A DNA stretch of 64,000 nt from Acidobacteriota bacterium (GTDB taxonomy: Bacteria > Acidobacteriota > UBA890 > WLXD01), in NCBI GenBank assembly GCA_963666215.2, contig CAXWPL010000001.1, positions 256,001-320,000 on the forward strand, written 5' to 3'. The first letter of the stretch is position 1, and each line of letters begins with the position of its first letter. This document shows, piece after piece, positions 6,046-63,898 of the stretch. The notes beneath the pieces were generated by a model. That model searched no databases. It saw nothing but the letters and a program-made list of their open reading frames with translations, and was not told the origin of the DNA. The position numbers and the translations under genes are program-made.

Positions 6046-7443
<1,398 letters not shown>

Positions 7444-7518
7444 TCGCCTCCCCTATGTCCGTGCGGCCCGTACGCGTGGCGGACTGCATCGTATCGAACC
7501 GACAGCGCGGGAAACCCG

Positions 7519-10425: not shown

Positions 10426-10667
10426 AGTCTAGGCATCAGCTGGATCGGACGATCCGAGTCGTTCGGCCGAGGGAGGCATCAATCCACTGTCCTCGCAATC
10501 TTCGTACCAACTCGCCGTCTTCGTCGCGCTGCGGCAATAACGGTCGCTCGGGCCAAGCGGGGGCATCTGCGTGACTCGGGCAGTCCCGAGTGACGGAAAA
10601 TGTCATTCCGAGATCCAATATCTTGGCTTGAAGATCCATGTCATTGGATGAGAGGTGAAAAGGCCTC

Positions 10668-10702
10668 AAACAAAAAACGGCGAGGGATTGCCGCCCTCGC
10701 CC
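10668..10702 (-). terminator. Rho-independent terminator
   Basis: Minus strand GGCGAGGG-(7 nt)-CCCTCGCC followed by GTTTTTTGTTT, ~80 nt after the stop of the 10782 gene. Confidence 0.75.
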
Positions 10703-10781
10703 GCCGTGATCTGGTTATTGCTCGTCGCATCAGGCCGCCCCACGGCCACAGATACGACGATCGCTTCCGACCCGCCCGACC

Positions 10782-12551: not shown

Positions 12552-12789
12552 AGGGCTTCCGTCAGGGGGGTCCACGGAATCCGAATCTATCATCGGGCCG
12601 CGAACACGGTCAACCGAGCTGCCCCTTCGCTCGGGAGCAGGCTGCCGCTTGGCGGAGAGCATCCTCCAGCATTCACTCAGTCGAGTCAACCATGGCCCCC
12701 AGCAGGCCGCGCAGCGCGGAGGCCGCATATTGAAGGACGGCCTTCCGGGCAGGTGGCGAGCGGTCATCGGACCGACTAGCGTGGGCGAC

Positions 12790-18293: not shown

Positions 18294-18382
18294 GGAGGGA
18301 TGGCTGAGTCAGGTTGAAGGCGGCGGTCTTGAAAACCGTTGACCGCTCACGCGGTCCGAAGGTTCGAATCCTTCTCCCTCCG
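18294..18382 (+). tRNA. tRNA-Ser(TGA)
   Basis: GGAGGGA acceptor / TCCCTCC-G, anticodon arm GCGGT-CT-TGA-AA-ACCGT, long variable arm, GGTTCGAATCC; CCA not encoded. Confidence 0.95.
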
Positions 18383-18444
18383 CCTTAAGCGTGCCGCATC
18401 GCCAGACCATGCGGCGATCCAATGCGACAGTCCGACTGTCAGCA

Positions 18445-18533
18445 GGAGGGGTGCTAGAGTGGACGAATAGGGCGGCCTGCTAAGCCGTTGCACGGGTCAC
18501 ACTGTGCCGTGGGTTCGAATCCCACCCCCTCCG
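18445..18533 (+). tRNA. tRNA-Ser(GCT)
   Basis: GGAGGGG acceptor / CCCCTCC-G, GCGGC-CT-GCT-AA-GCCGT, long variable arm, GGTTCGAATCC. Confidence 0.95.
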
Positions 18534-18745
18534 CTCTTCCTCAATAGACCACGTACTGGCGTCCGTCGGCGGCGTCCACAGATCACATGCAGAAGCGCTC
18601 CCCTGGTTTGCAGTCCGCGACCGGTGCTCCCGTCACGGAGCGCCGACAACGGTCCGTGCGTCAACACAGCGACGACACCGAGCGACTCCATAGGGAACGC
18701 TCGATCGATTCCGCTGCTCCGCCGCTATCAGCAGACCCGTCAGGC

Positions 18746-19253: not shown

Positions 19254-20747
19254 ATGTCCGACAATAACGAAGTCCGGGTGCGTTTCGCGCCCAGTCCGAC
19301 CGGAGACCTGCACGTCGGTGGTGCGCGGACGGCGCTGTTCAACTGGCTCTATGCCCGCAAGCACGGCGGCACCTTCGTCCTTCGCATCGAAGACACCGAC
19401 GAGCAGCGCTCGAACGAGGAATCGCTCGAGGGCATCCTCGAGGCGCTGACCTGGCTGGGCCTGGAGTGGGACGAAGGTCCGATCCAGCAAGCCGACCGGC
19501 TCGAGCTGTACAGCGACTACGTCTCGCTGCTGATGAGCTCCGGCCACGCCTACTACTGCTTCGCCAGCAACGACTCCATCGAGGAAGCACGCAACGCGGC
19601 ACAGGAAAGCGGCGAGAACTGGATCTACCGCGGCGCCGATCGCGATCTATCAGCGGACGAGGTGCGCGAGAAACTCGAGGAAGAGCTGCCGCACACGGTG
19701 CGGTTCAAAGTCCCCTCCGAAGAGTCGATCGTGGTCAACGACATCGTTCACGGTGACGTCACGTTCGAGACCGAGAACATCGAGGACTTCGTTCTGCTGC
19801 GCTCCGACGAGCGCCCGACGTATCACCTTTCGAACGTCGTCGACGATATCCAGATGGGAATCACCCACGTGATCCGCGGCGCCGACCATGTGTCCAACAC
19901 GCCGAAGCAGATCCTCGTCTACAAAGCGCTCGAAGCCAACGTCCCGCTGTTCGCCCACCTGCCGCTGATTCTCGGACCCGATCAGAAACGACTCTCGAAG
20001 CGTCATGGCGCGACGTCGATCAACATCTTTCGCAACAAGGGATATCTTCCCGGTGCCGTGGTCAACTATCTGGCGCTGCTCGGTTGGTCGCCCGGCGACG
20101 ACCGCGAGGTGTTCACCGTCCCGGACCTGATTCGCGAATTCACCCTCGAACGGGTGAACTCGTCGAACGCCGTTTTCGACGTCGCCAAGCTCGGATGGAT
20201 GAATGGCCAGTACATCTCGCAGGTGCCCGCCGGCGAGCTGCGCCTGTCGATCCGCGAGGCGTTACAAATTCGCGGCTGCTGGCAGGAAGAGCTCGACATG
20301 GAGCGCCGCGACTTCTTCTTCGCGCTCATCGAGCTGTGGCAATCGCGATCGCGCACGATCAACGATCTGGCCGACAACGTCACGCCGTTCCTGAGTGAGG
20401 CCTTTGCCTACCAGCCGGACGCGCTGAAGGAGCACATCCACAGCAAGGACCTCCTGGGCGGCGTTCAGGCCCTGCGCGAGGCGCTCATGCAGGTCGACCC
20501 GTGGGCCGCCGATGAGATCGAGGGCACCCTGCGAGAGGTTGCGGCGGGACTCGACATGGAAGCCGCCTCGCTGATCCATGCGCTGCGGCTTGCGCTCACA
20601 GGCAAGAAGGTCTCGCCTGGTCTCTTCGAGGTTGTCGAGATGATGGATCGCGAGAAGACTCGCAGTCGCATCGACCGCCTGCTGCGCTATCTCAAGAAGC
20701 TCGCCGACGCTCGCGACAAGCGCGAGACTCAGATGGCCAGGGCGTAG
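19254..20747 (+). CDS. gltX: Glutamate--tRNA ligase
   Basis: VRVRFAPSPTGDLHVGGARTALFN, LRIEDTD, THVIRGADH, RLSKRHGA. Confidence 0.96.
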   Translation: MSDNNEVRVRFAPSPTGDLHVGGARTALFNWLYARKHGGTFVLRIEDTDEQRSNEESLEGILEALTWLGLEWDEGPIQQADRLELYSDYVSLLMSSGHAYYCFASNDSIEEARNAAQESGENWIYRGADRDLSADEVREKLEEELPHTVRFKVPSEESIVVNDIVHGDVTFETENIEDFVLLRSDERPTYHLSNVVDDIQMGITHVIRGADHVSNTPKQILVYKALEANVPLFAHLPLILGPDQKRLSKRHGATSINIFRNKGYLPGAVVNYLALLGWSPGDDREVFTVPDLIREFTLERVNSSNAVFDVAKLGWMNGQYISQVPAGELRLSIREALQIRGCWQEELDMERRDFFFALIELWQSRSRTINDLADNVTPFLSEAFAYQPDALKEHIHSKDLLGGVQALREALMQVDPWAADEIEGTLREVAAGLDMEAASLIHALRLALTGKKVSPGLFEVVEMMDREKTRSRIDRLLRYLKKLADARDKRETQMARA

Positions 20748-20760: not shown

Positions 20761-21861
20761 TCAAAGCGAGCCGGCGTTTCTGTACCAAGCGGCGGTCAAC
20801 TCGAACCCTCGGCGAGCTTCGATCTCAGCAGTCATGCCGATCTCGGCTGCGAGCTTGTCGACGCTGCAGACAAAGCCTGGCGCGGTGAGCTCTCGGTAGC
20901 GCGAGCGGTTCACCAAGCCGGGAGTGCCGAGCAAACGCCCTTGAAGCTCGCCGAGCTGAGCGAGCGTCCAGAGCACTGCGCGAGGAACAGGAATCTGCCG
21001 GATCGTTCGCGGTGAGCGGACCTGGCCATCGGGTCCGCGCGACCGGTCGAGAGCGCCGCTGATGAGCTCTGCGAGCTGGCCCTGGGTTACGGGATCAGGG
21101 TGACCCAGGAAGAATTTCTGGTGCAGCGCGGGACCGTTGGCGAGAACCGATTCAGCGATTGCTACGAGCGCCGCGGTGACGTCGTCGACGTGGCCGAAGG
21201 TATACGCCGTATTCGGGTCGCCGAGAAGCGGCACCAGCCCGCGCTTGCCGGCCTGGAATAGAGCGAGAAAGTCCTTGTCGTGTGGGCCGTACACGGCGGG
21301 CGGACGAGCGACAGTCCAGCGCAGGCCGTCGACTCGCTCCACGGCGCGTTCGCCGGCGAGCTTGCTGCGACCGTAGAGACTCACCGGGGCTGGCGCATCG
21401 GTTTCGCGCCGTGGTCGTGCCGGGATCCCTGGGCCGGCCGCGGCGAGGCTGGATACCAGCACGAAGGCGGCCTCGGCATCTCGCGCGGCAACCGCTGCCT
21501 GGCGCGCACCTTCTTCGTTGACCGCGCAGAACTGCTCGTAGCTCACCGCGCGCGTCAGCCCGGCCAGATGAAATACCACCGTCGCCATCTCGCACGCCGG
21601 TGCCATGGCGCCGGCGGCGAGCTCGGCGTCGAACCTTGCCACTCCGGCGGGCAGCGGGTTGCGGCTCGATCGTCGGACGGCCGCGCGCACCGCCCAGCCC
21701 TGCGTAATCAGCCTCTCGCACAGATTCCAGCCGATGAAACCGGTTGCGCCCGTCACGAGAGCGACTCGCTCCGCGTTGCCGCGCGGGCGTTCCTGCCCGA
21801 AAGGTCGGTGGGTCGCCCGCCCCACGTCGCCCCCAGTACAGCCGTCGGGACCCGACGTCAT
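20761..21861 (-). CDS. NAD-dependent epimerase/dehydratase-family reductase, putative oxidized-ceramide/3-ketosphinganine reductase (CerR-like)
   Basis: GATGFIG, VSSLAAAG, YGRSK, RPPAVYGP; ATGA overlap with upstream GNAT gene; function inferred from operon with spt. Confidence 0.75.
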   Translation of the reverse strand: MTSGPDGCTGGDVGRATHRPFGQERPRGNAERVALVTGATGFIGWNLCERLITQGWAVRAAVRRSSRNPLPAGVARFDAELAAGAMAPACEMATVVFHLAGLTRAVSYEQFCAVNEEGARQAAVAARDAEAAFVLVSSLAAAGPGIPARPRRETDAPAPVSLYGRSKLAGERAVERVDGLRWTVARPPAVYGPHDKDFLALFQAGKRGLVPLLGDPNTAYTFGHVDDVTAALVAIAESVLANGPALHQKFFLGHPDPVTQGQLAELISGALDRSRGPDGQVRSPRTIRQIPVPRAVLWTLAQLGELQGRLLGTPGLVNRSRYRELTAPGFVCSVDKLAAEIGMTAEIEARRGFELTAAWYRNAGSL

Positions 21862-23000
21862 CGCAGCCGTTTCTCGTAGAGCCGGTAGGTCTTGGTGTGC
21901 TCACCACCGACGATACGGATCGCCTTCGAGATCCCTTCGTTCTCTTCCAACGTCCACGAACACTCACCCAGCGTGTACCCCAGGGCCCTGGCACGGCGCC
22001 ACGACTCTGTGATCAACAGCAGCTCGAGCCCCTTCTTGCGGAATTCCGGCAGCACACCGAGAAGCAGCATGCGAACACGATCCATGTAGCGCCTGCGGCG
22101 CAGGAGCCGGAAGATCCCGAACGGCAGCAGGCGGCCGTTCATCGGCTTGAATACCTGATTCAAATCACCGAGCGACAACGAGAACGCCGCCGGGCGCCCA
22201 TCGATGTCCATCATGAGTGCGAGCTCCGGATCGAGAACCTGTTTGAGATCCTTGGCCGCGTGCGCAAACTCCGCTTCGGTGGGGGCCACGAACCCCCAGT
22301 TGTCAGACCAGGCCGCCGAGTAGATCGTGCGGACGGCCTCCACCTCGACACTGAACCGCCGCATATCCAGCGATCGCAGCTGCGGCGGCGGCGTGACGTT
22401 ACGCAAGATACGGCGCTCAATGCGCAGCACCCGCTCGCTGAACTCGGCGGTGAGGTCGACGTTCCAGCTGAGAAGGTCCTTCAGCTTGCTGTAGCCCGCG
22501 GCTTCGAACCACTCCGGGTATTCTGGGCGGTTGTAGGGTGTCATCACGAACGGGTCGGTGCCGAAGTTGTCGAGCTGCAATCCGGCCGTGTCGTTGAGCG
22601 AGGGATTCGCCGGTCCGCGAATCCGATCTCGACCGCGGTCGACAACCCACTTCTCGGCGGCGCGCAGCAGAGCGAGCGCGACGTGCTGATCGGCGGCCTC
22701 GAAAAAGCCGAGCCACCCCGTCTCACCATGTATCTCGTTGTGCCGCGAGTCATCGATCGCGGCGATGCGGCCCACCGGCTCGCGCGAGCCCGACTCGGAA
22801 TACGCCAGGAACAGTTGCGCCTCGCCGTGCTCGAAGAAGGGGTTCTTGGCCGGGTCGATGCGGTCGACCTCAGCAATGAGCAGCGGTGGCACCCAGTTCG
22901 GATGTCCACGATAAATCGAAAACGGAACTCGCACGAAGGCGCGTCGTGCGGAGCGGCCCGCCACCGCCTCGACGCGAACGCCCGCTACCGCGTCAGTCAA
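21858..23000 (-). CDS. GNAT-fold N-acyltransferase, putative bacterial ceramide synthase (bCerS-like)
   Basis: WVPPL, NPFFEH, GRIAA, GFFE, GPANPSLND, MTPYNRPEY, AWSDNWGFV, LGVLPEFRKKG, SWTLEEN, KTYRLY; overlaps spt stop. Confidence 0.8.
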   Translation of the reverse strand: MTDAVAGVRVEAVAGRSARRAFVRVPFSIYRGHPNWVPPLLIAEVDRIDPAKNPFFEHGEAQLFLAYSESGSREPVGRIAAIDDSRHNEIHGETGWLGFFEAADQHVALALLRAAEKWVVDRGRDRIRGPANPSLNDTAGLQLDNFGTDPFVMTPYNRPEYPEWFEAAGYSKLKDLLSWNVDLTAEFSERVLRIERRILRNVTPPPQLRSLDMRRFSVEVEAVRTIYSAAWSDNWGFVAPTEAEFAHAAKDLKQVLDPELALMMDIDGRPAAFSLSLGDLNQVFKPMNGRLLPFGIFRLLRRRRYMDRVRMLLLGVLPEFRKKGLELLLITESWRRARALGYTLGECSWTLEENEGISKAIRIVGGEHTKTYRLYEKRLR

Positions 23001-24207
23001 TCACGCGATGCCGACGACCCACATCGGCGAAGACCGCGAGACCCTCGTCGATTTCCTCGCGGCTGTGGCTGGCGTTGACCGCCGTGCGGATCAGGCACTG
23101 TCCGTCGGGGACGCTTGGCGGCAACGCCGGCAGCGCGAAGATCCCGGCGTCCCAGACGCCTTTCCAGAGCTGCAGCGTGCGTGCCTCGTCGCCAATCGAC
23201 ACCGGGATAATCGGCCCTTCAGAGGTCAGAACGTCGAAGCCGAGACCACGGAGACCGTCTCGGAACTGCCCGATCCGATTCCACAGCGTCTCGCGATGCC
23301 AGGGCTCACTAGCGACAATCTTCACGGCGCGACTGGTGATCGCCACCTGCGCAGGCGGCAGCGCCGCGGTAAAGATAAAGGGTCGAGCAACGCACTTCAC
23401 GAAGTCCACCACTCGAGCGTCGCCTGCCACGAAGCCGCCCACCGAGGCGAATGCCTTGGAGAACGTGCCGATAATGAGGTCAACCTCTTCTTCGAGGCCG
23501 AAGCGCTCGGAAGTACCACGGCCGTTGGCGCCCAGCACTCCGGAGGCATGGGCATCGTCGACAACGATCCGCGCTCCGTAACGCTTGGCCACGTCGACGA
23601 TGGCCGGCAGGTTCGCGACCGAGCCACTCATCGAGAAAACGCCGTCGGTAACAACCAAGCGACCACCGCGTTTCCCTTCGTCGCTCCGCAGTAGCCTTTC
23701 GAGATCCGCGATGTCGTTGTGCCGGTACTTGCGTAGCTTGCCGAACGAGAGGCGCGCCCCGTCGAAAAGGCTGGCGTGATTCTCGCGGTCGAAATAGAGA
23801 ATGTCGTGACGATCGGCAAGTGCCGTGATCACGCTCAGCGAGCCCAGGAAGCCGGTGCTGAACGTCAGCGCAGCTTCCTGGTTGAGGTAGGCCGCGAGCT
23901 CGGCTTCGAGAGATTCGTGCAGCGCCAAGGTGCCGTTGAGGAAGCGCGAGCCGGTGCAGCTGGTGCCGAACTCGTCGAGTGCGGCGGTGCCGGCGCGGCG
24001 CACTCGTTCGTCCTGCGACAAACCCAGGTAGTCGTTGGAGCCCATCATTAACATGCTCCGTCCCTCGACCGTCACGCGGTTGCCGTCCTGGCCTTCGAGC
24101 GGCTTGAAGTACGGAAACAGCCCTACGTCGCGCAGGTCGTTGGCGCGCGAGAAGCTGCGCGCCTTCTCGAAGATATCGACGGTTCGAGTTGCCGTGTCGG
24201 TCGTCAT
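22993..24207 (-). CDS. spt: Serine palmitoyltransferase-like alpha-oxoamine synthase (PLP)
   Basis: GLFPYFKPLE, MGSNDYLGL, SCTGSRFLNGT, NHASL, DGVFSM, DDAH, PLP-Lys motif GTFSKAF, FIFTAALPP; N-terminus and GTFSK resemble bacterial SPT more than BioF/Kbl. Confidence 0.8.
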   Translation of the reverse strand: MTTDTATRTVDIFEKARSFSRANDLRDVGLFPYFKPLEGQDGNRVTVEGRSMLMMGSNDYLGLSQDERVRRAGTAALDEFGTSCTGSRFLNGTLALHESLEAELAAYLNQEAALTFSTGFLGSLSVITALADRHDILYFDRENHASLFDGARLSFGKLRKYRHNDIADLERLLRSDEGKRGGRLVVTDGVFSMSGSVANLPAIVDVAKRYGARIVVDDAHASGVLGANGRGTSERFGLEEEVDLIIGTFSKAFASVGGFVAGDARVVDFVKCVARPFIFTAALPPAQVAITSRAVKIVASEPWHRETLWNRIGQFRDGLRGLGFDVLTSEGPIIPVSIGDEARTLQLWKGVWDAGIFALPALPPSVPDGQCLIRTAVNASHSREEIDEGLAVFADVGRRHRVID

Positions 24208-24398
24208 GAACATGTGCTTCCGCGCGGTCGCGGTAGCCCAACCTGGAGCGCGCGAGTTGCGCACCCGATCCAAGTCGATAACCGCTACGCAGCAGCCGAT
24301 AGAGGGATCGCGTCTCGTATGAACCGTAAGACGATGCCGCTAGTGGAGTGAAACAGCAACTCCCAGGCGCCCACTAGGGTACGCCCAATGCCAAGTGG

Positions 24399-25094
24399 CT
24401 AGTGCGCCGAGTCTGCGGGTTCGGCCCGGAGTTCGGCGATGCGGGCTTGTAATCGCCCAATAACCTCCTCGACGCTTTCCTCCTGGAGCAAGCGCCGGAA
24501 CCGAGTACGCCACCCCCGAACCGTATTCGAGCCATCGAAAACGTAGTTGACGATCATCCAGCCGCTGTCCGATCGGCGCAACTCGTAGTCGAGAGTGAAC
24601 TCCTCGTCGTCATAGTACGCCAGCGTGTTGACAGTGGCAGTGTCGATTTCGACCTCTTCGCCGATGTACTCGAAACGCTCGGCGCGATAGCGACCGAGGC
24701 TCTTGACCGAGCGCACCCGCAGCAGCTCGGCGAACGTGCTGCCGAACTCCGCGCACACTGTCGGGTCGGCGGTACAGAGCTCGCCAACCGCCGCTTCCGA
24801 CATGGCGGCGAAATCGGTGACCCCGTCCATGATTTGGTAAACCTCCGCTTCGGCTTCGGGGGCCAGCGCGTCGGAGTCACCGAACTTGGCGAGGATCGCA
24901 GCGTTCGAGCCGCGCACCGCGTCGAGCGGCGTGGTCGCCTCAACGGCTGCCTGTGCCACCTGGGCCCCCAGGGCTACGTGCCCGCGCCCGCGCGTCGTGA
25001 CCGGACTCGCCAATACGAGCGCGCAGGTCAGTAGGGCGAGAGCGGGGGTGGTTCGACTTGGAAGCCTTCGGTTACGAGCTTGTCGCGTTGCCAT
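24399..25094 (-). CDS. MlaC/Ttg2D (HpnM-like) periplasmic lipid-binding protein
   Basis: Signal peptide, TDFAAMSEAAVG, FAELL, LDYEL, WMIVNYVFDGS...RTRFRRLL; overlaps tolC 3' end. Confidence 0.75.
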   Translation of the reverse strand: MATRQARNRRLPSRTTPALALLTCALVLASPVTTRGRGHVALGAQVAQAAVEATTPLDAVRGSNAAILAKFGDSDALAPEAEAEVYQIMDGVTDFAAMSEAAVGELCTADPTVCAEFGSTFAELLRVRSVKSLGRYRAERFEYIGEEVEIDTATVNTLAYYDDEEFTLDYELRRSDSGWMIVNYVFDGSNTVRGWRTRFRRLLQEESVEEVIGRLQARIAELRAEPADSAH

Positions 25095-26508
25095 TCTCAA
25101 CCCATGTCAAATAGAGATCGAAGTCGCCCAGAACAAACGCCAGCTCGACCAGAGCGATCCTGAACTCATACTCCTGCGCAACCACCTGGGCCCGCAAGCG
25201 ATAATCCTGCCTGTAGGCCTTGACGAGCGGCTCTGCCTCGCCGATGCCCAGGTCGAACTCGTCGGCGGCCGCGCGTAACCAGCGCCGGGATACCAGGCGC
25301 GTTTCGATCACCGTGTCGAGCAACATGCGACTGCGGGCAAGCTTCGCGTATGCGGCTCGGACGTCGAGCTCGACCTTCATCTGCAGCGCTTGCGCCCGCG
25401 CCTCGGTGGCGTCGCGTTGGATCTTTCTGCGCGTGTACTCGATGTCGTGCTTGGCGAAGTTGAGATCCCAACGGGCCCCGAGCGCAGCCCCGCCCTGGCG
25501 GTAGTTGAACGAGTCGAAGGCGAACGGGTTCGTCTGGTCGTCGCGGTTCGGCGCGTACGCCAGCCGGAAGCCACCGCCCACAACGATCAGCGGCCAGCGC
25601 TCGCTGCGCGCCTGATCCATCGCCGACCCGAGGGCGTCCACGGCGGCATGTAATGCTCTCAGCTGGGGGCTAACACGGGCAGCCCGCGCCACGAGGCCCG
25701 CCACGTCGTCGGCCGACAGCGCTGACTCGGGCGCCTCGTCGACGACTGTGAACAACGCGTTATCGGCAAGCCCCAGGAAGGTCGCTAGCGTCCGACGCAC
25801 GAGACGACCCCCGTCGAACGCCTCCTGGTACACCTTCTCGATCTCGTAGCGGCTGCTCTGGACTTCGTACGCGTCGTTCGGATCGATCGCGTCGTCAGCA
25901 AGCTTTTCCTCGATCTGCTCGAGAATCTCCTCGTAGGATTGTCGCAGGTCCTCAGCGACCTCGAGCGCCGCTTCGGCCGCCGCGAGGCCCCAGTAACCCT
26001 TGATAACCTCGAGGCGAATCTCGTTGCGGGCCTGGTCAAGCCTCGCTTCCTCGGCACTGAGGGCGCCGCGCGCCGCTGCGGCGGCGTTCGAGATACGCCC
26101 AAATCCGTACAGCGGAATCTTGAAGCCGATGTCGAGCTTGACGAACGGGCCGAAACTGCTGAAGGCGTTGGCGGAGTCGGGCGAAAACACGGGGTTGCCG
26201 CGAGCCTCGGGCACCGCGCCGCCCTGTGCGTTGAGAGTGAACTGCGGCAGGCTCCAAAAGCCGTCGAACCGCTGTACATCGAGGCGCGTCCTCTCCACGT
26301 CGAGCTCGTGGGCGCGAGCCAGCGGACTGTTCGCCATCGCCAGTGCGAGAGCACGCCGCACGGTGAGCTCGGTGCCTGGGCGATCCGCGGAGCGAGCGCC
26401 ATGATCCGGAGCTTGTGCAGACGCCGAACCGCCCCAGCCCAGGCAAACTGCCGCGGCGCTTGCAACAAGCAGACTGGGCGCGAGCATGATGGATCTTGGG
26501 AGTCGCAT
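25072..26508 (-). CDS. TolC-family outer-membrane efflux protein
   Basis: Signal peptide, LTVRRALALAMANSP, two OEP repeats with coiled coils (EVIKGYWGL; DVRAAYAKL), FDLGIG. Confidence 0.8.
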   Translation of the reverse strand: MRLPRSIMLAPSLLVASAAAVCLGWGGSASAQAPDHGARSADRPGTELTVRRALALAMANSPLARAHELDVERTRLDVQRFDGFWSLPQFTLNAQGGAVPEARGNPVFSPDSANAFSSFGPFVKLDIGFKIPLYGFGRISNAAAAARGALSAEEARLDQARNEIRLEVIKGYWGLAAAEAALEVAEDLRQSYEEILEQIEEKLADDAIDPNDAYEVQSSRYEIEKVYQEAFDGGRLVRRTLATFLGLADNALFTVVDEAPESALSADDVAGLVARAARVSPQLRALHAAVDALGSAMDQARSERWPLIVVGGGFRLAYAPNRDDQTNPFAFDSFNYRQGGAALGARWDLNFAKHDIEYTRRKIQRDATEARAQALQMKVELDVRAAYAKLARSRMLLDTVIETRLVSRRWLRAAADEFDLGIGEAEPLVKAYRQDYRLRAQVVAQEYEFRIALVELAFVLGDFDLYLTWVENGNATSS

Positions 26509-26865
26509 GTGCACAGCCGGCGGAAGGCCTGAGGGCGGCGGGCCAGAGAAACTCACCCTACCATTCGGCGCTGGCAGTGGACCGCCCGCTCACGCCGGCC
26601 GTATTCTGGCAACCAAGCCCCCGCGAGCAAACCGGGCCGCGACTTGACGGCCCCCTGCCCGTCTAAGAGGCTTTGCCGCAAGAAGCGTGCAACTCAAACC
26701 AGCCCCGGTACCGATGCGCGCTCGAACTCGCGAGTCTCGGGCTCGCACCCGCCGGCATCTCTAAAGAGGCCGACGCCGGATCCGAACATCCGGCCGCCGC
26801 AACTCGCGCCTCAACCGGCAGCCCTTTGGAGCACTCGTGGCCCTCGCGTCCCCGGTTTTGTCGTG

Positions 26866-29286
26866 ATGCAAGTCCCTCAGCGCCGCAGACGCCACAGGAC
26901 CCTCTTCTACAAGGAGATCCGCGCCATCTGCCGATTCTCGTATCGGCACGCGTACCTCGTGTTCGCCGCATCTCTGGTGCTCTGCGTACCGGCTTTCTTC
27001 GAGGCGCGGAAGATCGGACTCGACACCGACCTCACGCGCTTGCTTCCGTCGAGCAGTGACGCGGTCCGCTGGACCGAGGAGCTCAAGCCGGTTGTGGGCG
27101 ACGGGGGCTACTTCAGCTTTATCTTCGAGGGAAGCGACCACGACGCGCTCGTGCGCACCGTCGAGGAGACCGCGCGGCGCGTTCGGCAGCTCGACGGCAT
27201 CGACGCGATCGACTACCGCTTCCCCGTCGACTTCCTCAACAAGCACCGCTACCTGCTGATTCCCACCGCCCAGCTGCGCGACCTCGTCGATACCGTCGCC
27301 GAGTGGGAAGAACAGGCGAACCCGTTTCTTGACGATCTCGGCCTGGGCGACGAAGAGAGCGAGCCGACGAAGGACGACGACCTCGAGCGACTCATCTCTC
27401 GCTACGGCAACTTTCCCGACTACAACGAGCATCCCGACGGCGGGATGCTGGGCATGCTCGTACATCCGCGCGACGGCATCAGCAACATGGGGGCGGTGCG
27501 CGACATGTATCGCGAGATGGACGCGATCTGTGCCGAGATCGCCGCCGCAAACGGCGTTGCGTACGGCATCGGCGGTTCGCTGCGCAACCGAGTCGACGAG
27601 TTCGACGTTCTCATCGAGGACCTGGGCCGCTCGGGCACGATTGCCGTCCTCGCGATCTTGTTGACGTTGATGATCAGTTTCCGCTCGATACGTGTGCTTC
27701 CGGTACTTCTGTACCCACTGGCGGCCGGGCTGCTGTGGGCGTTCGCCTTTGTCCCCTACTTGGTGGGTGACCTCAACACGATCACGTCATTCCTGTTGAT
27801 GGTGCTGTTCGGGATGGGGGTCGACTACTCGATCCATCTGGTCAAGCGTTTTCGCCTCGAGATCGCGCACCGGGATGAGCTCGACGCGCTGATCGAGACC
27901 TTCACGTCGACGGGCCGTTCGGTGGCGACCTCCGGGGTAACGACCGCGCTGGGCCTGTCGATTCTGGCGATCTCCGATTTCCGCGGATTCTCCGACTTCG
28001 GCAGAATCGGCGGCAGCTCGATGATAATCGTGACGTTGGCGATGCTCTTCCTGATGCCGGCCATCTTGATTGTCGGCAAGCGCTGGGGTCTGGTCACGGC
28101 GCGTGTCCCCAACCTGCCCAGCAAACACCTGGCGCTGCCGCCTCGCTGGGCCGCGGCTACGGTGACGGCGCTCGTCCTCATGTCGGCCGGTGCGGGAATG
28201 ACCTGGATGAGCTTCGACTACGACTTCACCAAGGTCAGCACCTCGCTACCGGAGACCGAGGTCATTCAACAGAAGGAGCGCGACATCTATCCCTTCTTTT
28301 TCGGCCCCGCCGCGGTGTGGGTCGCCCCTGACCTCGAGACCTTGGACAGCGCGCTCGACCTCCTGTACACGGCGCGAGGCGAAGAGAACACGCCTATTGG
28401 CGCGATCTCCAGCATGCGTGACTTTGTTCCGTCAGAGAGCGAACGTCGAGAGCGGCTTCAGCTGTTGTCGGAGATCAAGGAGATCCTCGGCGGACGCTGG
28501 GTGCGCAGGGTCGAGGATCCGGATCGACTGCGGGCGATTGAGGATCTGCAGGCCTGGGTCGCTCCAGACGAGCCCATCACGGTGGAGGATCTACCTGCTT
28601 CGATTCGGCGCGGGCTCGAAGCACGCGACGGCTCCGGCGAGCTGATGCTCGCCGCCAACGTCAACGGCCCGGTTCGCGACGGCCAGCTCAGCATGCGGTT
28701 CACCGAACGTATCTACGATCTCGACATGCCCGCCGCGCTGCGTGGCCCCACGGGCGAGAAGCCGGTGCTCGCCGAGATCCTCTGGCTGGTCACGAGACAG
28801 GCGCCCCTCATTGTCGGACTCACGCTCATCGGCGTCTTTCTGCTGGTCGCGCTGGATCGCCGCTCGCTGCTGCAAACGGTGTGGGTACTGCTGCCGCTGG
28901 TCTCTGGGCTGATCCTCACGTTCGGCGTCTGCGTGGTCTTTGGCTGGAAGCTCAACTTCCTCAACATGGTCACTCTGCCAGCACTGCTGGGGATCGCGGT
29001 CGACCATGGGATCCACTACTACCGCCGTTGGCGCGAGCTCGAGCGCGACACCGCCACAACCCAGCGCGAGCTCTTCGAACCCATCACCGTGAGCACTCTG
29101 ACGACGATCATGGGTTACGCCGGCATGGCCTTCGCTCGCCACCCCGGGCTGCGCTCGATCGGTCACCTCGCGATCGTCGGCCTCGTCTGCACATGGCTGA
29201 CCGCGCTGATCCTTTTGCCCGGCCTGCTCGGCTGGCGCGCGCGCCAGAGGACGGGAGCTCCGTCGAAGACTGCTACCGTCGGCTAG
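26866..29286 (+). CDS. MMPL/RND-family lipid transporter (HpnN-like)
   Basis: Duplicated architecture with ~12 TM and two periplasmic loops; LDTDLTRLLP, GMGVDYSIHL, GIAVDHGIH, HPGLRSIG. Confidence 0.88.
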   Translation: MQVPQRRRRHRTLFYKEIRAICRFSYRHAYLVFAASLVLCVPAFFEARKIGLDTDLTRLLPSSSDAVRWTEELKPVVGDGGYFSFIFEGSDHDALVRTVEETARRVRQLDGIDAIDYRFPVDFLNKHRYLLIPTAQLRDLVDTVAEWEEQANPFLDDLGLGDEESEPTKDDDLERLISRYGNFPDYNEHPDGGMLGMLVHPRDGISNMGAVRDMYREMDAICAEIAAANGVAYGIGGSLRNRVDEFDVLIEDLGRSGTIAVLAILLTLMISFRSIRVLPVLLYPLAAGLLWAFAFVPYLVGDLNTITSFLLMVLFGMGVDYSIHLVKRFRLEIAHRDELDALIETFTSTGRSVATSGVTTALGLSILAISDFRGFSDFGRIGGSSMIIVTLAMLFLMPAILIVGKRWGLVTARVPNLPSKHLALPPRWAAATVTALVLMSAGAGMTWMSFDYDFTKVSTSLPETEVIQQKERDIYPFFFGPAAVWVAPDLETLDSALDLLYTARGEENTPIGAISSMRDFVPSESERRERLQLLSEIKEILGGRWVRRVEDPDRLRAIEDLQAWVAPDEPITVEDLPASIRRGLEARDGSGELMLAANVNGPVRDGQLSMRFTERIYDLDMPAALRGPTGEKPVLAEILWLVTRQAPLIVGLTLIGVFLLVALDRRSLLQTVWVLLPLVSGLILTFGVCVVFGWKLNFLNMVTLPALLGIAVDHGIHYYRRWRELERDTATTQRELFEPITVSTLTTIMGYAGMAFARHPGLRSIGHLAIVGLVCTWLTALILLPGLLGWRARQRTGAPSKTATVG

Positions 29287-29433
29287 TCGATCCTGCGCTC
29301 CTGGGTCCGATTGCGTTGGCCAGGCGCTCGAGCTCGCAGGTAGCTCTCTCAGGCAACCCACGGCCTCCCTGCACTCCGCACGCATTGAACGATTGCGCGC
29401 CCACAGGACCCTCACTAGACTGTCCGGCTTGGT

Positions 29434-29508
29434 TGGGACGTCGTCCAATTGGCAGGACATACGGTTCTGGTCCGTAGTATCGGGGTTCGAGTCCCTGCGT
29501 CCCAGCCA
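29434..29508 (+). tRNA. tRNA-Gln(CTG)
   Basis: TGGGACG acceptor / CGTCCCA-G-CCA, TACGG-TT-CTG-GT-CCGTA, GGTTCGAGTCC. Confidence 0.95.
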
Positions 29509-29556
29509 ATCATCTTCACGCGAGTCGGGCCACGCAGCGCCGAATCTGTTGCGCTT

Positions 29557-29836
29557 CAGCCCGTGGTGGAAGTGTGGCGGGCCTGGTTACGGCGAGTTGG
29601 GGGCGGATGCAAGGCGGCCTGACGCAGGCGATGGTTGCCCCATCGTCGAGGAAGGCCAACACCGCAGACGCCCCCAAATCGCCGTAACCCCCCGATGCAA
29701 AGATCCGGCAGGGGCCCGCGGTCGTATGCTTCGTCGTTCGTCGTCAACGATGCCTTGAGCATCGCTTCCTCCTCTCTCCTCGCCTCCGCCTCGCAAGACC
29801 CTGTCGCCAGGCCCACCACACTTCCACCACGGGCTG
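29557..29836. repeat. Nested inverted-repeat element (MITE-like)
   Basis: Outer IR 29557-29586 vs 29807-29836 (29/30 match); inner IR 29585-29605 vs 29669-29689 (20/21); internal hairpins GCCTG-acg-CAGGC, CGATGG-ttgcc-CCATCG, CGATGC-cttga-GCATCG. Confidence 0.75.
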
Positions 29837-30341: not shown

Positions 30342-31235
30342 ATGCCCATACCTGCCCCGCCCTACCTGACCAGGCCTCTCTGCGTCGGTATCACGCTGGC
30401 GGCCGCCTTGGCGTCAACGCCGGCGCCACCAGCCTCCGCGACGCTCGGCAACCCCGCGCTCCGTGAGGCGGCGATGTCGACGGCCACTGCTCCGCCGCCC
30501 GAGTCTTTCTACGAACCCTGGAAGCGAGTGCTCGCCGCCTACGTCGACGATGAAGGCCTGGTCGACTACGCCGGGCTCGCCGCAGGCGGCTGGGCGGAGC
30601 TCGAGAAGTTCATGAAAGTGCTCGCCGACGCCAACCCCGACGCCTTTGCGAACGACGACGAGCGCATCGCGTTCTGGATCAACGCCTACAACGCGGTGGT
30701 GATTTGGCAAGCTGTCGAGCGCTACCCCATTGACTCGGTGCGGGATGTTGGTGCTCTGTGGGGCCTCGTCGGCGGCTTCTTCAAGAACGAGTACCGCGTC
30801 GCCGGTCGCGATATGAGCGCCGACGACATCGAGGACGGCACCCTGCGAGCCAACTGGTCTGACACGCGTATCCACTGGGCGCTCGTCTGCGCCGCTTTCG
30901 GCTGCCCCCGCCTGCTAAATCGGCCGTACCTCGCCAGCGATCTCGACGATGTGCTCACCGAGCGCGCACGCGAGTTTCTCGGGCAGCCCCGCGGCCTGCA
31001 GCTGGACCGCGCTGCCAACACGGTCTACCTGTCGAGTTATTTCGACTGGTACGCCGGCGACTTCGAGGCGGAATCAGGCGATATCGTCAGTTACGTGCTG
31101 CGCTATGCGCCAGAGAGCGACGCCGACTTCATCCGGACTCATCGTGAGCAGCTCCGCGTGCGGATCATGGACTACGACTGGGCGCTCAACGACCAGCCGA
31201 GCGGCCCACGTAGTCGACGCCCGGTGCCGCGCTAA
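30342..31235 (+). CDS. DUF547 domain-containing secreted protein
   Basis: YVDDEGLVDY, AFWINAYNA, RIHWALVCAAFGCP, LSSYFDWYAGDF, YDWALN. Confidence 0.88.
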   Translation: MPIPAPPYLTRPLCVGITLAAALASTPAPPASATLGNPALREAAMSTATAPPPESFYEPWKRVLAAYVDDEGLVDYAGLAAGGWAELEKFMKVLADANPDAFANDDERIAFWINAYNAVVIWQAVERYPIDSVRDVGALWGLVGGFFKNEYRVAGRDMSADDIEDGTLRANWSDTRIHWALVCAAFGCPRLLNRPYLASDLDDVLTERAREFLGQPRGLQLDRAANTVYLSSYFDWYAGDFEAESGDIVSYVLRYAPESDADFIRTHREQLRVRIMDYDWALNDQPSGPRSRRPVPR

Positions 31236-31286: not shown

Positions 31287-32072
31287 CTAGTGGCCCCGTG
31301 CCCGCGTGAGTCGCCGTAAAGCCCGCGCGGTTGCGTAGTCGGCAGAGGCGCGCATGCGGGCAACCTGGAGGCCAACCGCGCCGTCGCGGAAGCCCTGCTG
31401 GCCAACAAAGCGTTTGAGGAAAGCGACGGCCGGGCGCAGGAGGAGGTAGTACGGCACTTTCGAGAGCGTCACGCGTCGCCCCATGTCGTACCAATCCTCA
31501 GCCGCAAGGCGCGCATAGCGCTCCGATTTCGCGCGGAACACGGCCGCATCGTCGCCGGTGTGGTGATCAACGTGGCCGGACAGCACGGCGCTGCGTGAGG
31601 AATCGTCGAGAACCGCGAACTCGTGGACCCGGCGATCGTCGAAGCGGGCGCGGCCACGCCGAAACAGACGTAGGTGGGCTAGCTTGTACCAGCCTGAGTA
31701 GCGCACCTCGCGGCCGAACAACGTTGTCAACCGTCGTACCAGATAGCCGTCGACGAACGGACTGTCGGTTTCGAGCGCGACCTGGATCGCGGCGGCGAGC
31801 TCGCCGTTGAGGCGCTCGTCGGCATCCAAGAGAAGGATCCAATCGCCGGTCGCCTGCTCGATGGCAAACTGCTTCTGGAGTCCGAAGCGATCGAGGGTTC
31901 GTGACAGAAACTGAGCGCCGTGTCGCACCGCGACTTCGCGCGTAGCGTCGGTGGAGTTGTCGTCGACGATCACGATCTCGTCGGCGAACGGCACCGAGCC
32001 CAGGCAGCCTTCGAGCGTCTGTTCCTCGTTGCGCGTGATGACGACGAGCGACAACTTGGCCATCGGAGTCAT
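31287..32072 (-). CDS. Glycosyltransferase family 2 (WaaE/KdtX-like)
   Basis: ITRNEE, VDDNSTDAT, QKQFAI, LLLDADE, RVHE, GFRDG. Confidence 0.9.
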   Translation of the reverse strand: MTPMAKLSLVVITRNEEQTLEGCLGSVPFADEIVIVDDNSTDATREVAVRHGAQFLSRTLDRFGLQKQFAIEQATGDWILLLDADERLNGELAAAIQVALETDSPFVDGYLVRRLTTLFGREVRYSGWYKLAHLRLFRRGRARFDDRRVHEFAVLDDSSRSAVLSGHVDHHTGDDAAVFRAKSERYARLAAEDWYDMGRRVTLSKVPYYLLLRPAVAFLKRFVGQQGFRDGAVGLQVARMRASADYATARALRRLTRARGH

Positions 32073-32675: not shown

Positions 32676-33995
32676 TCAGACAGTCAAACCGTGGGTAACC
32701 GCGTGCTCGAACGCGTCGCAGAAGCGGTCGAGCTCTTCGAGCGTTGTGAACACGCTCGGGGAGATTCTCAGGCCGGTGTACTCGTCGTGGTTGATGGCCA
32801 CACTGATGATCTTGTGCTCGCGCCACAGCCAGCTGTTGAGCTCCGACGTGTCGAGGCCGCGCACGCCAACATTGGCAATGCCCGCCGCGAAGCCCGGCTT
32901 TTGACTCGTGTTGAGGTACACGCGGTCCGAGAAGGACTGCAACCGGTTCGCCCAATAGTCGCGCAAGAAGACCAGGCGTTCGGTCTTTCTGACGCTCCCG
33001 ATGCCCTGATGGAATGTCAGCGCGTCGCCGATCCCCAGGTAGTTGGCCGCCGGGTGGGTGCCGATCTCCTCGAACTTGCGAATATTGTCGTCCTGGGCCT
33101 GGTTCGCTGCCATCAGAGGCCACAGATTCTTGATCTTGTTGCGGCGGACGTAGAGCAAGCCGGTACCGTGCGGTGCGAACAGCCACTTATGCAGGCTGCT
33201 GGAGTAGTAGTCGCAGTCGAGGTCGGAAAGCTTGAAGTCGAAATGCGCCAGCGTATGGGCGCCGTCGACGATCACCGGAATCCCGCGCGCTCTCGCCATC
33301 TGCGCCACCTTGGCCACTGGCAGGATCTGCCCGGTGAGGTTAATCATGTGGCACATGTGAATGATCTTGGTGCGCGGCGTGATGTGGCTCTCGAAGGCTG
33401 CGACGATCTCGTCGGGGTTCTCCGACGGCACCGGAAGCGAGATCTGCGTGAGCACAACGCCCTCACGACGTTCACGCTGCTTGTAGGTGGTGATCATGCG
33501 GCCGTAGTCCTGATTGCTCGTCAGAATCTCGTCGCCTGGCTTCAGATCGATCCCGAATTGGCAAATCTGGAGTCCCTCGGAGGCGTTGCGCACCAGCGCG
33601 ATCTCCTCCGAGTCGACGGCCCACTCGCGAGCCAACCGTTCGCGCACCTGCTCACGCTGCGGCTCGAGGATCTGCCACATCGTGTAAGTGGGCGACGTGT
33701 TCGAGAAGGCGAGGTAGCGCTCCATCGCCTCCTGCACCACCACGGGTGACGGTGAGACCCCGCCGCTGTTCAGGTTGATGATTCCGGGCTCCGCCGAGAA
33801 GGCTTGCCGGACCTGATACCAGTAGTCTTCGTCTTCGGCGATCGCACTCGGGGCGCCGGGGTGAGCTTCGAGCTCGCCAGCCATTGCGAGCGCGCGCCCC
33901 ATCCGATCCGGCTCGAACAGCACCCCCGAGACCGCGGCCGTGGCCGGCATCGACATCCATCCGAAAAAGACGCGGCGATTCAGAGCGTTGCGCAT
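32676..33995 (-). CDS. Class V PLP aminotransferase-fold enzyme (isopenicillin-N epimerase-like) with Tat-like signal
   Basis: NRRVFF twin-arginine motif, NLNSGGVSPSP, RNASEGL, VDGAH, SSLHKW, EEIGT. Confidence 0.85.
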   Translation of the reverse strand: MRNALNRRVFFGWMSMPATAAVSGVLFEPDRMGRALAMAGELEAHPGAPSAIAEDEDYWYQVRQAFSAEPGIINLNSGGVSPSPVVVQEAMERYLAFSNTSPTYTMWQILEPQREQVRERLAREWAVDSEEIALVRNASEGLQICQFGIDLKPGDEILTSNQDYGRMITTYKQRERREGVVLTQISLPVPSENPDEIVAAFESHITPRTKIIHMCHMINLTGQILPVAKVAQMARARGIPVIVDGAHTLAHFDFKLSDLDCDYYSSSLHKWLFAPHGTGLLYVRRNKIKNLWPLMAANQAQDDNIRKFEEIGTHPAANYLGIGDALTFHQGIGSVRKTERLVFLRDYWANRLQSFSDRVYLNTSQKPGFAAGIANVGVRGLDTSELNSWLWREHKIISVAINHDEYTGLRISPSVFTTLEELDRFCDAFEHAVTHGLTV

Positions 33996-34148
33996 GCGAA
34001 ACCTCGAGGACGGCTGTGTTGGGTCGATCTTGAACAACGGCTGCGCGGATTCTACCGGTCCGGTGAGCAAACCGCGCGGGCAGGCGTGGATGACCGGATA
34101 ATCCGAGCTGGCGGAGTGCCGGAAATCAACGGCGGGGCTTGCTTATTG

Positions 34149-34178: not shown

Positions 34179-34223
34179 TAGTTGTTCAATCCCACCCAAC
34201 CCCGCATGGAAGACTGCACGCTC

Positions 34224-34565
34224 ATGGACGACGCTCACCAGTTCCTGCCACTTACGCCGCGAGTGCTCCACATCCTGCTGGCGCTGCTGCACGGTCCGCA
34301 GCACGGCTATCGAATCATGAAGGATGTCGAGGAGCTCAGCTCGGGCCTCGTGAAGATCGGCCCGGGCACGCTGTATGAAGCGATCCACGGACTACGCGAG
34401 AAGGCTCTGATCGAGCCCGCGGCCTCAGAAGGCGACGCTCGCCGCCGCGCCTATCGCCTCACAGAGCTCGGCCGCGACGTCGTAGCGGCCGAGACCAGCC
34501 GGCTCGCCGACGTTGTCGACTATGCGCGCTCGGCCGCCGCTGGCGGCACCGGAACCTCACGGTGA
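34224..34565 (+). CDS. PadR-family transcriptional regulator
   Basis: ILLALLHGPQHGYRIM, GPGTLYEAI, RRRAYRLTELGR; GTGA overlap with permease. Confidence 0.92.
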   Translation: MDDAHQFLPLTPRVLHILLALLHGPQHGYRIMKDVEELSSGLVKIGPGTLYEAIHGLREKALIEPAASEGDARRRAYRLTELGRDVVAAETSRLADVVDYARSAAAGGTGTSR

Positions 34566-60747: not shown

Positions 60748-60821
60748 GACTCGAGTCTATCCGACAAGGCGGTTCTTAGGGAACGCGGGCGTTCAGCTCC
60801 GTGCCTCGAGTGGGTGTTTAA

Positions 60822-63895: not shown

Positions 63896-63898
63896 CAG

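Follow-up and report, generated by a model that had tools for sequence, protein, structure and literature searches.

A locus of six genes in the 64-kb stretch of DNA analysed here combines genes for bacterial ceramide synthesis with genes for an RND inner-membrane transporter, an MlaC-like periplasmic carrier candidate and a TolC-like outer-membrane factor of the OEP family. This stretch, referred to as the window, comprises positions 256,001 to 320,000 of contig CAXWPL010000001.1 of an Acidobacteriota bacterium (assembly GCA_963666215.2). The proposal of a locus in which ceramide synthesis is coupled to a dedicated trans-envelope exporter of lipid is given an even chance of being correct. The three transport genes probably form a cassette that is dedicated to the export of specialised envelope lipids, which are probably ceramide-based in this case. 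Its assignment to sphingolipids draws on one to two independent linkages between synthesis and transport genes, together with the genomic context of the whole transporter family.

Organization of the locus

The cluster consists of six intact genes and is bounded by gltX (19254-20747, plus strand) and a tRNA-Gln gene, within a window whose G+C content is 63-70% across the first 58 kb. Minus-strand transcription follows the order OEP, MlaC-like gene, gap, spt, bCerS-like gene, cerR-like gene, and the RND gene is transcribed divergently on the plus strand. The features are as follows.

20761..21861, minus strand: cerR-like NAD(P)-dependent SDR/epimerase-family reductase, 366 aa (Pfam Epimerase), last gene of the spt-bCerS-cerR unit
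21858..23000, minus strand: bCerS-like tandem-GNAT N-acyltransferase, 380 aa, TTG start (AlphaFold2 (AF2) model and Foldseek)
22993..24273, minus strand: spt, serine palmitoyltransferase (SPT)-like alpha-oxoamine synthase, maximal open reading frame (ORF) of 426 aa (Aminotran_1_2; NCBIfam and PDB ranking)
24399..25100, minus strand: MlaC-like periplasmic lipid-carrier candidate, 233 aa (Pfam MlaC; fold match)
25072..26556, minus strand: TolC-like outer-membrane factor, OEP, maximal ORF of 494 aa (Pfam OEP in two stretches)
26557..26865: divergent intergenic region between OEP and RND, about 310-360 nt depending on the OEP start (ORF coordinates)
26866..29286, plus strand (maximal ORF from 26644): HpnN/MmpL-type RND inner-membrane transporter, 806 aa (Pfam MMPL)
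29434..29508, plus strand: tRNA-Gln(CTG), marking the end of the RND transcription unit (Rfam tRNA, 54 bits; ARAGORN)

The stop codon of the bCerS-like gene overlaps the ATG of the cerR-like gene by 4 nt and the spt stop codon overlaps the bCerS-like TTG by 8 nt, which suggests translational coupling. The OEP stop codon is located inside the start region of the MlaC-like gene, with an overlap of 29 nt if this gene starts at the TTG at 25100 or of 23 nt if it starts at the ATG at 25094, the probable start according to its homologues. An earlier reading of this DNA, made from the sequence only, had reported the ORF coordinates, the overlaps of 8 and 4 bp, the OEP/MlaC overlap and the divergent RND gene, all of which were reproduced. 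Its coordinates are those of maximal ORFs, and the start sites were amended. The most likely start of the RND gene is the ATG at 26866 rather than 26644, because a database protein (P0121) is identical to the resulting product at 100% over 806 aa. OEP probably starts at 26508 and spt at an ATG near 24213. A gap of about 125-190 nt lies between the MlaC-like stop codon and the spt start. In this gap and in the divergent intergenic region terminator-like sites occurred at background level (6 found, 5.9 expected), and no sigma-70-like promoter, inverted repeat or Rfam family was detected in either.

Genes for ceramide synthesis

Spt, bCerS and CerR are described as the bacterial ceramide pathway, with genes that are often clustered, in the available parts of three papers (PMC11087976, PMC11334938, PMC10191378). 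The spt product of the window matches Pfam Aminotran_1_2 with 197 bits. Among NCBIfam models it ranks SerpalmtaseCFB first (436 bits, cut-off 640), followed by bioF (382 bits) and Kbl (355 bits), all under their curated cut-offs. Compared with PDB sequences it scored 367 bits to Sphingobacterium SPT (8guh/3a2b) and 264-279 bits to other bacterial SPTs, against 263 bits for the best non-SPT chain, 226 bits for E. coli Kbl and 212 bits for BioF. Both sets of scores favor SPT over BioF and Kbl. This agrees with the sequence-only reading, which had named this pyridoxal phosphate-dependent enzyme Spt, and clustering with BioF or Kbl was not seen in the comparison, which is a score ranking and not a tree.

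For the bCerS-like protein itself no match was obtained in Pfam or NCBIfam. However, at least 5520 homologues at E<=1e-3 were found among 8000 scored sequences, many of which carry PF00583/PF13480 (Acetyltransf_1/Acetyltransf_6), and its look-alike clusters in the Atlas score 0.98 as GNAT. An AF2 model (pLDDT 92.3, pTM 0.90) yielded tandem-GNAT amine N-acyltransferases as the best Foldseek matches, namely 5kf1 (1.3e-12), 7q3a, MshD and NMT. These fold relatives comprise glucosamine N-acetyltransferase, MAB_4324, mycothiol synthase and N-myristoyltransferase, and the predicted tandem-GNAT fold would fit N-acylation of a sphingoid amine. The cerR-like product is an NAD(P) Rossmann protein with 101 bits to Pfam Epimerase and further matches to RmlD_sub_bind and 3Beta_HSD. 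No NCBIfam model reached its cut-off for this protein (best HpnA, 57 bits), and a hydropathy scan revealed no hydrophobic segment in it. The putative functions of both proteins were assigned by fold or family and by position beside spt; the GNAT-fold and NAD-epimerase-like identities proposed earlier for these two members of the trio are borne out by the tandem-GNAT model and the Pfam Epimerase match. A ceramide-synthesis function of the trio is well supported.

The gene order differs from the layout outlined for alpha-, beta- and gammaproteobacteria, Caulobacter included, in the available text of PMC11324152. There, cerS is located in a separate operon and acpR and aasR lie beside spt, whereas here the bCerS-like gene is located between spt and the cerR-like gene. 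No gene for an acyl carrier protein (ACP) or an acyl-ACP synthetase is present in the cluster, where 20761-26556 is filled by the five genes.

The transporter, the carrier and the outer-membrane factor

The ORFs of 15.9-34.1 kb, which cover the locus region, were scanned against Pfam, as were further ORFs of the window. The RND protein matches MMPL with 110 bits in two stretches, one in each half, and ACR_tran with 21.5 bits, which is under the cut-off of 28. Its best solved relatives are HpnN structures (5khn, 117 bits; 6wu0, 108 bits), followed by MmpL5/MmpL4. In the hydropathy profile a first transmembrane segment (TM1) precedes a periplasmic domain of about 200 aa, and TM2-6 are followed by another such domain, again of about 200 aa, and then by TM8-12, which fits a 12-TM plan. 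In an alignment of 60 family members D/E320 and H324 in TM4 and D713 in TM10 are kept in all 60, and H717 in 59. These conserved charged residues in TM4 and TM10 fit proton coupling. From its sequence the transporter appears to be of the lipid-exporter type and not of the drug-pump type.

The MlaC-like protein scored 64 bits to Pfam MlaC and was marginally similar to solved MlaC sequences (E 0.07). For its AF2 model (pLDDT 84.4) the top 12 Foldseek matches in the PDB were all MlaC/Ttg2D lipid-binding proteins (E 8e-9 to 2.8e-5); the MlaC-like identity proposed by the sequence-only reading is thus matched by the predicted fold. Y145, Y172 and D189 are invariant in the 34 aligned family members. 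Cys109 is found in 15/34 and Cys116 in 14/34, and the cysteine pair is conserved in the clade of the window. An N-terminal hydrophobic stretch, read as a signal peptide, occurs in 34/34. The signal-like stretch and the cysteine pair point to a periplasmic location. OEP matches its Pfam family with 122 bits in two stretches, and NodT/TolC subfamily models scored far under their cut-offs. Its hydrophobic N-terminal segment (residues 22-40), which is followed by an ASA-Q motif, was likewise read as a signal peptide.

A predicted complex of the RND protein and residues 50-233 of the MlaC-like protein scored 0.42, with 0.00 for the best control. In this procedure 58 of 80 solved complexes attain the mark, as do 2 of 110 mismatched pairs, and marks reached at scores of 0.60 or less came from just seven of these solved complexes and from both passing mismatches. 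At least 92% of the contacts agreed between runs and the partner pLDDT was at least 77. The prediction is a hint at contact between transporter and carrier.

HpnN and HpnM are the top named NCBIfam models for the transporter and the carrier, and HpnN is the best solved relative of the former, as would be expected from a hopanoid HpnN/HpnM transport pair. Such a function is nevertheless scarcely credible here. The scores are far under the cut-offs, with 250 versus 752 bits for HpnN (TIGR03480), 164 versus 1100 bits for NF052374 and 42.5 versus 160 bits for HpnM (TIGR03481). HpnN-named database proteins share 23-25% identity with the RND protein of the window (105-125 bits), in contrast to at least 566 bits within the family. 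Neither a squalene-hopene cyclase nor an hpn gene was found in the Pfam scans of the window or among the annotated clusters of the related loci described below. The MMPL/RND identity given earlier from the sequence holds, with HpnN as the closest solved relative, but the protein is not HpnN in the strict sense.

The carrier fold also allows for the reverse direction of transport. Retrograde function of the Mla system is a published model, and a cassette with an MlaC-fold carrier could work inward to retrieve mislocalised outer-membrane lipid. This is very improbable for the cassette of the window, in which the partner is a putatively proton-driven RND protein of the HpnN/MmpL exporter type and not the ABC/MCE complex MlaFEDB. 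No MCE or MlaE match was obtained in the Pfam scans of the window, and the location of the cassette inside biosynthetic operons fits the delivery of newly made lipid.

Linkage of synthesis and transport genes in related loci

A genome scan with a profile of the RND protein gave 588 pattern matches, 470 of which encode relatives, and the best 80 resulted in 79 loci. All ORFs of these loci were translated, compared with the window proteins and clustered, and cluster representatives were annotated by Pfam and NCBIfam. The architecture of the window recurs in seven of the 79 loci (L001-L006 and L029), all of them from metagenome-assembled genomes (MAGs) of Acidobacteriota. This gene-for-gene recurrence indicates that the arrangement is more than chance. 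Identities to the window proteins in the seven loci are 56-59% for RND, 63-69% for Spt, 53-57% for bCerS and 46-49% for the MlaC-like protein. The cerR-like product shares 54-57% identity over 91-98% of its length in six of them; in L004, where the copy is truncated (48% coverage), the identity is 63%. On the RND tree the seven loci group with the window in a single clade of eight that has full support. They also share flanking genes, with a DUF547 and a GT2 gene in 7/7 (55-69% identity), an aminotransferase gene in 6/7 (76-80%) and gltX in 3/7 (71-72%). As one clade with gltX and other synteny in common, the seven loci amount to roughly one event. Matches of bCerS and RND in the protein database seem to pair in eight assemblies, five of them with a longest contig of at most 35 kb, which suggests that there are more members of this clade.

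Independent support comes from L008, a locus in a Polyangiaceae MAG that belongs to the sister group of the window clade on the RND tree and whose RND protein is 51% identical. It contains, in this order, genes for a Wzx-like protein, CerR, Spt, MlaC and OEP on one strand, two CDP-alcohol transferases and RND on the other, and a radical-SAM protein, an NTP-transferase and MIPS on the first strand again. Spt is 55% and the cerR-like protein 40% identical to the window proteins, and no bCerS gene is present within 10 kb. Thus spt, cerR, MlaC and OEP occur together with RND in another setting, which in addition includes inositol-phosphate head-group genes. At least two of spt, bCerS and cerR were found in 8/79 loci, or 9/79 if a lone cerR-like gene (46% identity) on the 5.6-kb contig L010 is included. 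The sequence-only reading had named a neighborhood survey as a check on its proposal; the transport genes do co-occur with spt and cerR in the window clade and in L008, but this linkage extends to 8/79 loci only.

The transport cassette in other phyla

An MlaC-like gene was found in 50/79 loci and an OEP gene in 44/79, in several phyla; both are present in 27 of the 41 loci that extend at least 9 kb to either side of RND. Contiguous and co-directional genes in the order OEP, MlaC, RND occur in nine loci and the divergent form of the window in seven. In 19 further loci an adjacent OEP-MlaC pair is separated from RND, and in 17 of these the genes are co-directional, with RND 1.3-8.9 kb downstream and mostly biosynthetic genes between. 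MlaC is followed by RND without a visible OEP gene in five loci, and RND stands alone in 28, several of which are on short contigs. According to the labels of the database records the cassette is found in Acidobacteriota, Myxococcota, Spirochaetota, Aminicenantes, Kapabacteria/Chlorobiota, Latescibacterota, Balneolota, Rhodothermota and others. Within L025, from a Spirochaetota MAG, the RND gene is tandem-duplicated behind OEP and MlaC (7370-12520).

The MlaC-like gene holds the operon position that the gene for the membrane-fusion protein has in classical pumps. A combination of a TolC-type outer-membrane factor, an RND pump and a Ttg2/toluene-tolerance-type helper could be a solvent or drug efflux system that is unrelated to lipid biogenesis. 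The OEP family is typical of efflux systems, the closest structures of the carrier are annotated as toluene-tolerance proteins and relatives of the transporter are named 'efflux RND transporter permease' in databases. However, no membrane-fusion (HlyD) gene was found among the scanned ORFs of 15.9-34.1 kb, and the nine loci with contiguous OEP, MlaC and RND leave no room for an adaptor gene. The RND protein is MMPL/HpnN-like with ACR_tran under its cut-off, and the neighbors of the family are lipid head-group enzymes. An efflux function is therefore considered improbable, and lipid export remains the preferred function of the cassette.

Inositol-lipid genes are among these neighbors. MIPS occurs in 16/79 loci and an NTP-transferase cluster in 25/79, sometimes fused to a CDP-alcohol transferase; the fused protein scored 240 bits to the IPCT/DIPPS model (cut-off 580). 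At least one of MIPS, NTP-transferase and CDP-alcohol transferase is present in 27/79 loci; these are represented in both halves of the RND tree, with 26 'Ino' rows and 16 changes. Five loci (L017, L019, L022, L030 and L033; about 1.5-12.4 kb each) harbor one co-directional run of NTP-transferase, DUF2141, cluster u49, CDP-alcohol transferase, LPG-synthase-TM, HAD, MIPS, OEP, MlaC and RND genes, and L028 contains a partial version. The complete runs are from Kapabacteria, Chlorobiota and related MAGs. The available text of Heaver et al. lists the same gene set for Bacteroides vulgatus and Prevotella, where it is their putative alternative inositol-lipid cluster, and proposes that the cluster leads to inositol-phosphoryl dihydroceramide via CDP-inositol, which is stated there to be unconfirmed (PMC9246714). 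The cassette is thus wired into putative inositol-lipid operons like those proposed for gut Bacteroidetes. In L009 a PAP2_3 gene directly follows RND and is itself followed by GtrA (9968-14126); its product scored 176.5 bits to 'phosphoinositol dihydroceramide synthase' (cut-off 480). Another RND paralogue of this MAG, L011, has unrelated surroundings.

Other contexts were found as well. GT4 glycosyltransferases, a Wzx-like flippase, Wzi and DUF3047 are encoded near the cassette in Balneolaceae loci. A cluster of proteins of about 340 aa, u14, is present in 14 loci, and in the Balneolaceae loci (L042-L073) its gene usually lies directly after MlaC. No Pfam or NCBIfam match was obtained for clusters u12, u14, u25 and u38, which are possibly further components of the cassette or of lipid pathways, and u49 gave weak RimK-like matches only. 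In two Aminicenantes MAGs (L023, 3257-12355; L027, 6959-12463) the gene of a large type I polyketide synthase (PKS; KS-AT-DH-...-ER) diverges from MlaC and RND, and a PKS-made long-chain base as cargo of these cassettes is no more than a lead; PKS-derived sphingolipids are, to judge by its listing, the topic of PMC12134224. The common denominator of these contexts is a specialised envelope lipid made by the neighboring genes. A ceramide core and an inositol-phosphate head group converge in inositol-phosphoryl ceramide, and the genes for both are physically together in L008.

Proposed function

From the genes present, their folds, the charged transmembrane residues conserved in the family and the neighborhood patterns we infer a substrate, a direction of transport, a flipping step, hand-over steps and a role for OEP as follows. 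Serine and an acyl thioester would be condensed by Spt, and N-acylation of the product by the tandem-GNAT bCerS-like enzyme and reduction of the 3-keto group by the CerR-like SDR would give dihydroceramide; this order is borrowed from the Caulobacter model in the cited papers. A head group is possibly added before export, and a ceramide modified by a head group may be the cargo in place of ceramide itself. Once flipped to the outer leaflet of the inner membrane, the lipid would be extracted by the proton-driven RND protein through its two periplasmic domains and passed to the secreted MlaC-like carrier. Ferried across by the carrier, the lipid would arrive at the outer membrane, with the TolC-like OEP as a possible receptor, insertion site or channel. 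OEP, MlaC and RND would thereby act as a modular cassette that different phyla attach to ceramide, inositol-phosphate lipid, glycolipid or PKS-lipid pathways.

Several observations weigh against this proposal for the window. The NCBIfam scores for Spt, HpnN, HpnM, phosphoinositol dihydroceramide synthase and IPCT/DIPPS are all under the curated cut-offs. The linkage to ceramide genes is phylogenetically narrow, comprising the 8/79 loci given above, and as a label on the RND tree it needs two changes; 70 of the 79 loci have no ceramide gene within 10 kb. The agreement of the seven window-type loci, with their shared synteny, may be inherited rather than a selected linkage. The gap upstream of spt splits the MlaC-OEP pair from the ceramide genes, and one five-gene transcript of the minus strand is only putative. 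At 0.42, the complex prediction falls where a score, unless there is a prior, is wrong more often than right. Phospholipids are the known cargo of MlaC proteins, and which way the Mla system transports is a matter of debate. The PKS and the glycosyltransferase/Wzx/Wzi contexts show that the substrate of the family is not uniformly a sphingolipid. Finally, the inositol link is not directly applicable to the window, which is without MIPS, CDP-inositol, Wzx and PAP2_3 genes. A tblastn search with 22 representative locus proteins, including MIPS, NTP- and CDP-alcohol transferases, HAD, LPG-synthase-TM, DUF2141, DUF3047, GT4, Wzx, PAP2_3, GtrA, radical SAM and unknowns, gave no match in its 64 kb at E<=1e-3 or 1e-2.

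Some of these points would be accounted for if the cassette served another envelope lipid, such as an inositol phospholipid, a glycolipid, a PKS-derived lipid or bulk phospholipid, with the ceramide neighborhood being inherited synteny without a functional tie. The many loci without ceramide genes and the variation of contexts between inositol genes, GT4/Wzx/Wzi and PKS agree with this explanation, as do the synteny of gltX and other unrelated genes in the window's clade and the glycerophospholipids bound by solved MlaC-fold proteins according to the structure descriptions. However, L008 keeps spt-cerR abutting MlaC-OEP despite a transporter of only 51% identity and different flanks, and in the window the OEP-MlaC pair lies immediately upstream of spt on the same strand. 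Moreover, members of the family recur inside lipid-biosynthetic operons and not at random places. An unrelated cargo is on these grounds rather unlikely. Export of a ceramide-based lipid, as proposed by the sequence-only reading, gains from the gene identities, from L008 and from the inositol-lipid contexts and loses from the narrowness of the linkage. It is plausible, partly supported and the best single interpretation for this organism, and substrate and direction stay conditional in it.

A more general proposal goes beyond the window and is somewhat doubtful at present. According to this, OEP, the MlaC-like protein and RND would constitute a previously unrecognised and widespread trans-envelope machine for lipid export, in which an MlaC-fold carrier replaces the adaptor and a TolC-like barrel in the outer membrane accepts the lipid. 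Ancestrally, its cargo would have been sphingolipids with polar heads (inositol-phosphoryl or glycosyl ceramides), and it would be the missing sphingolipid route for the many phyla without LptF2G2. If the function proposed for the locus and its relatives is true, it would explain how the outer membrane is built in sphingolipid- and inositol-lipid-producing bacteria outside the Proteobacteria and would give a marker by which such lipids can be traced in the genomes of uncultured phyla. With the locus and its relatives, a concrete candidate of three genes is at hand for cloning and testing.

Other features of the window

Downstream of the RND gene, three genes that are also syntenic in related loci were annotated by Pfam/NCBIfam, and their relation to the cluster is uncertain.

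30342-31235, plus strand: DUF547 protein
31287-32072, minus strand: GT2 glycosyltransferase
32676-34070, minus strand: class-V aminotransferase, PvdN-like

Judged by its family, the GT2 protein could add a sugar head group. This syntenic gene is the only nearby candidate head-group gene of the window; galU and a UDP-glucose dehydrogenase gene are located farther off. Shortly downstream of the aminotransferase gene, a PadR-family regulator and MacB-like permease ORFs (MacB_PCD, FtsX) are encoded at 34182-37260 (plus strand). An ORF of 121 aa at 29393-29758 was rejected as spurious, as it covers tRNA-Gln(CTG); the presence of this tRNA gene after RND is kept in four related loci, as seen from short, high-identity 'orf121' matches. 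Two tRNA-Ser genes follow serS at 18294-18384 and 18445-18534.

A 729-aa protein encoded at 39942-42131 (plus strand) consists of a patatin-like phospholipase fused to an Omp85 domain and resembles the outer-membrane lipase PlpD. An open frame of 9.1 kb (3048 aa; 44894-54040, minus strand) lies in a region of 64-69% G+C. It gave patchy partial Pfam matches in the order FixC-like FAD oxidoreductase, acyl-CoA dehydrogenase domains, ETF-beta and ETF-alpha, and 12 ORFs in other frames of this region were checked and had no Pfam match. Possible explanations of the frame include a giant fusion protein and a series of frameshifted genes. From 58000 to 64000 the G+C content falls from about 65-70% to 55-60%. 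This part encodes a Schlafen/AlbA_2 and HATPase_c_4 protein (60822-62384), an N6/N4 DNA methylase (63059-63895) and, in several further ORFs, proteins that match no family, and is possibly an acquired defence or mobile island.

Comparison with known systems

The machinery by which sphingolipids reach the outer membrane is unknown in most bacteria and, in the literature as far as available, has been addressed only for the Caulobacter-type LptF2G2 system. The available text of PMC11087976 states that no sphingolipid transporters have been identified. This and the preprint 10.64898/2026.04.12.717747, as far as available, agree with the remark of the sequence-only reading that no RND/TolC route for sphingolipid has been characterised. 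A literature search retrieved no prior description of sphingolipid transport by RND and MlaC proteins, nor of a bacterial serine palmitoyltransferase with MmpL beyond a remark on Myxococcus xanthus discussed below, and the gene lists of larger surveys may already hold such loci. Among papers on HpnN with sphingolipid, none was on this topic by its title and the opening of its abstract.

In Caulobacter crescentus, sphingolipid transport by LptB-LptF2-LptG2 (LptC2), whose genes are located within the sphingolipid locus, is described in the available text of the same preprint (10.64898/2026.04.12.717747). Both systems thus have transport genes in a sphingolipid locus and the same proposed task of transfer from the inner to the outer membrane. 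They differ in that an ATP-driven Lpt-type ABC transporter is used there, whereas here a presumably proton-driven RND protein, a soluble carrier and OEP are encoded. No match to an LptF/LptG-type gene was obtained in the Pfam scans of the 64-kb window. The preprint also reports an MmpL gene right downstream of spt in Myxococcus xanthus, speculates that it is an alternative sphingolipid transporter and expects transport to differ among taxa (10.64898/2026.04.12.717747). The likeness to the window lies in an MmpL/RND gene beside spt; as a difference, the terms MlaC, TolC and RND do not occur in the available preprint text, which names neither an MlaC-like nor an OEP partner. Apart from this remark, no printed hint of an RND route for sphingolipid was found in the texts available. 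No Myxococcus-named protein was among the 120 matches listed for either search with the RND protein.

HpnN moves a specialised lipid towards the outer membrane, as described in the available text of PMC11713862. The HpnN/HpnM system and the cassette share the broad RND type and an adjoining MlaC-family gene, and HpnN is the best solved relative at 117 bits. In contrast to HpnN/HpnM, the window cassette includes OEP, is neighbored by ceramide genes, and by inositol-lipid genes in relatives, and has no hopanoid genes nearby. The BstABC system for sterol transport in Methylococcus capsulatus is described in the same text as an MmpL/HpnN-like RND protein, a periplasmic carrier and an outer-membrane component that are encoded with biosynthetic genes and were found by this co-localisation (PMC11713862). 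By analogy only, the cassette shows the same three-tier logic and layout. However, its carrier has an MlaC fold and is not PhnD-like as BstB, its outer-membrane part is OEP and not a TatT/TPR lipoprotein like BstC, its RND protein scored 153 bits to BstA (cut-off 1400), and the implied cargo is a sphingolipid and not a sterol.

The Mla system (MlaA-OmpC/F, MlaC, MlaFEDB) likewise uses a soluble MlaC-fold carrier between an inner-membrane machine and an outer-membrane protein. It differs from the cassette by its ABC/MCE complex in place of RND and by MlaA-porin in place of a TolC-like OEP; MCE, MlaE and MlaA had no match among the scanned ORFs of the 64-kb window. With AcrAB-TolC-type pumps the cassette shares an RND protein and a TolC-family outer-membrane factor that are encoded together. 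Unlike these pumps it is without a membrane-fusion adaptor, has the MlaC-like protein in the middle position and contains an RND protein of the MMPL/HpnN branch. If its proposed function is true, RND, an MlaC-fold carrier and a TolC-like barrel without an adaptor would represent a new architecture among envelope lipid transporters.

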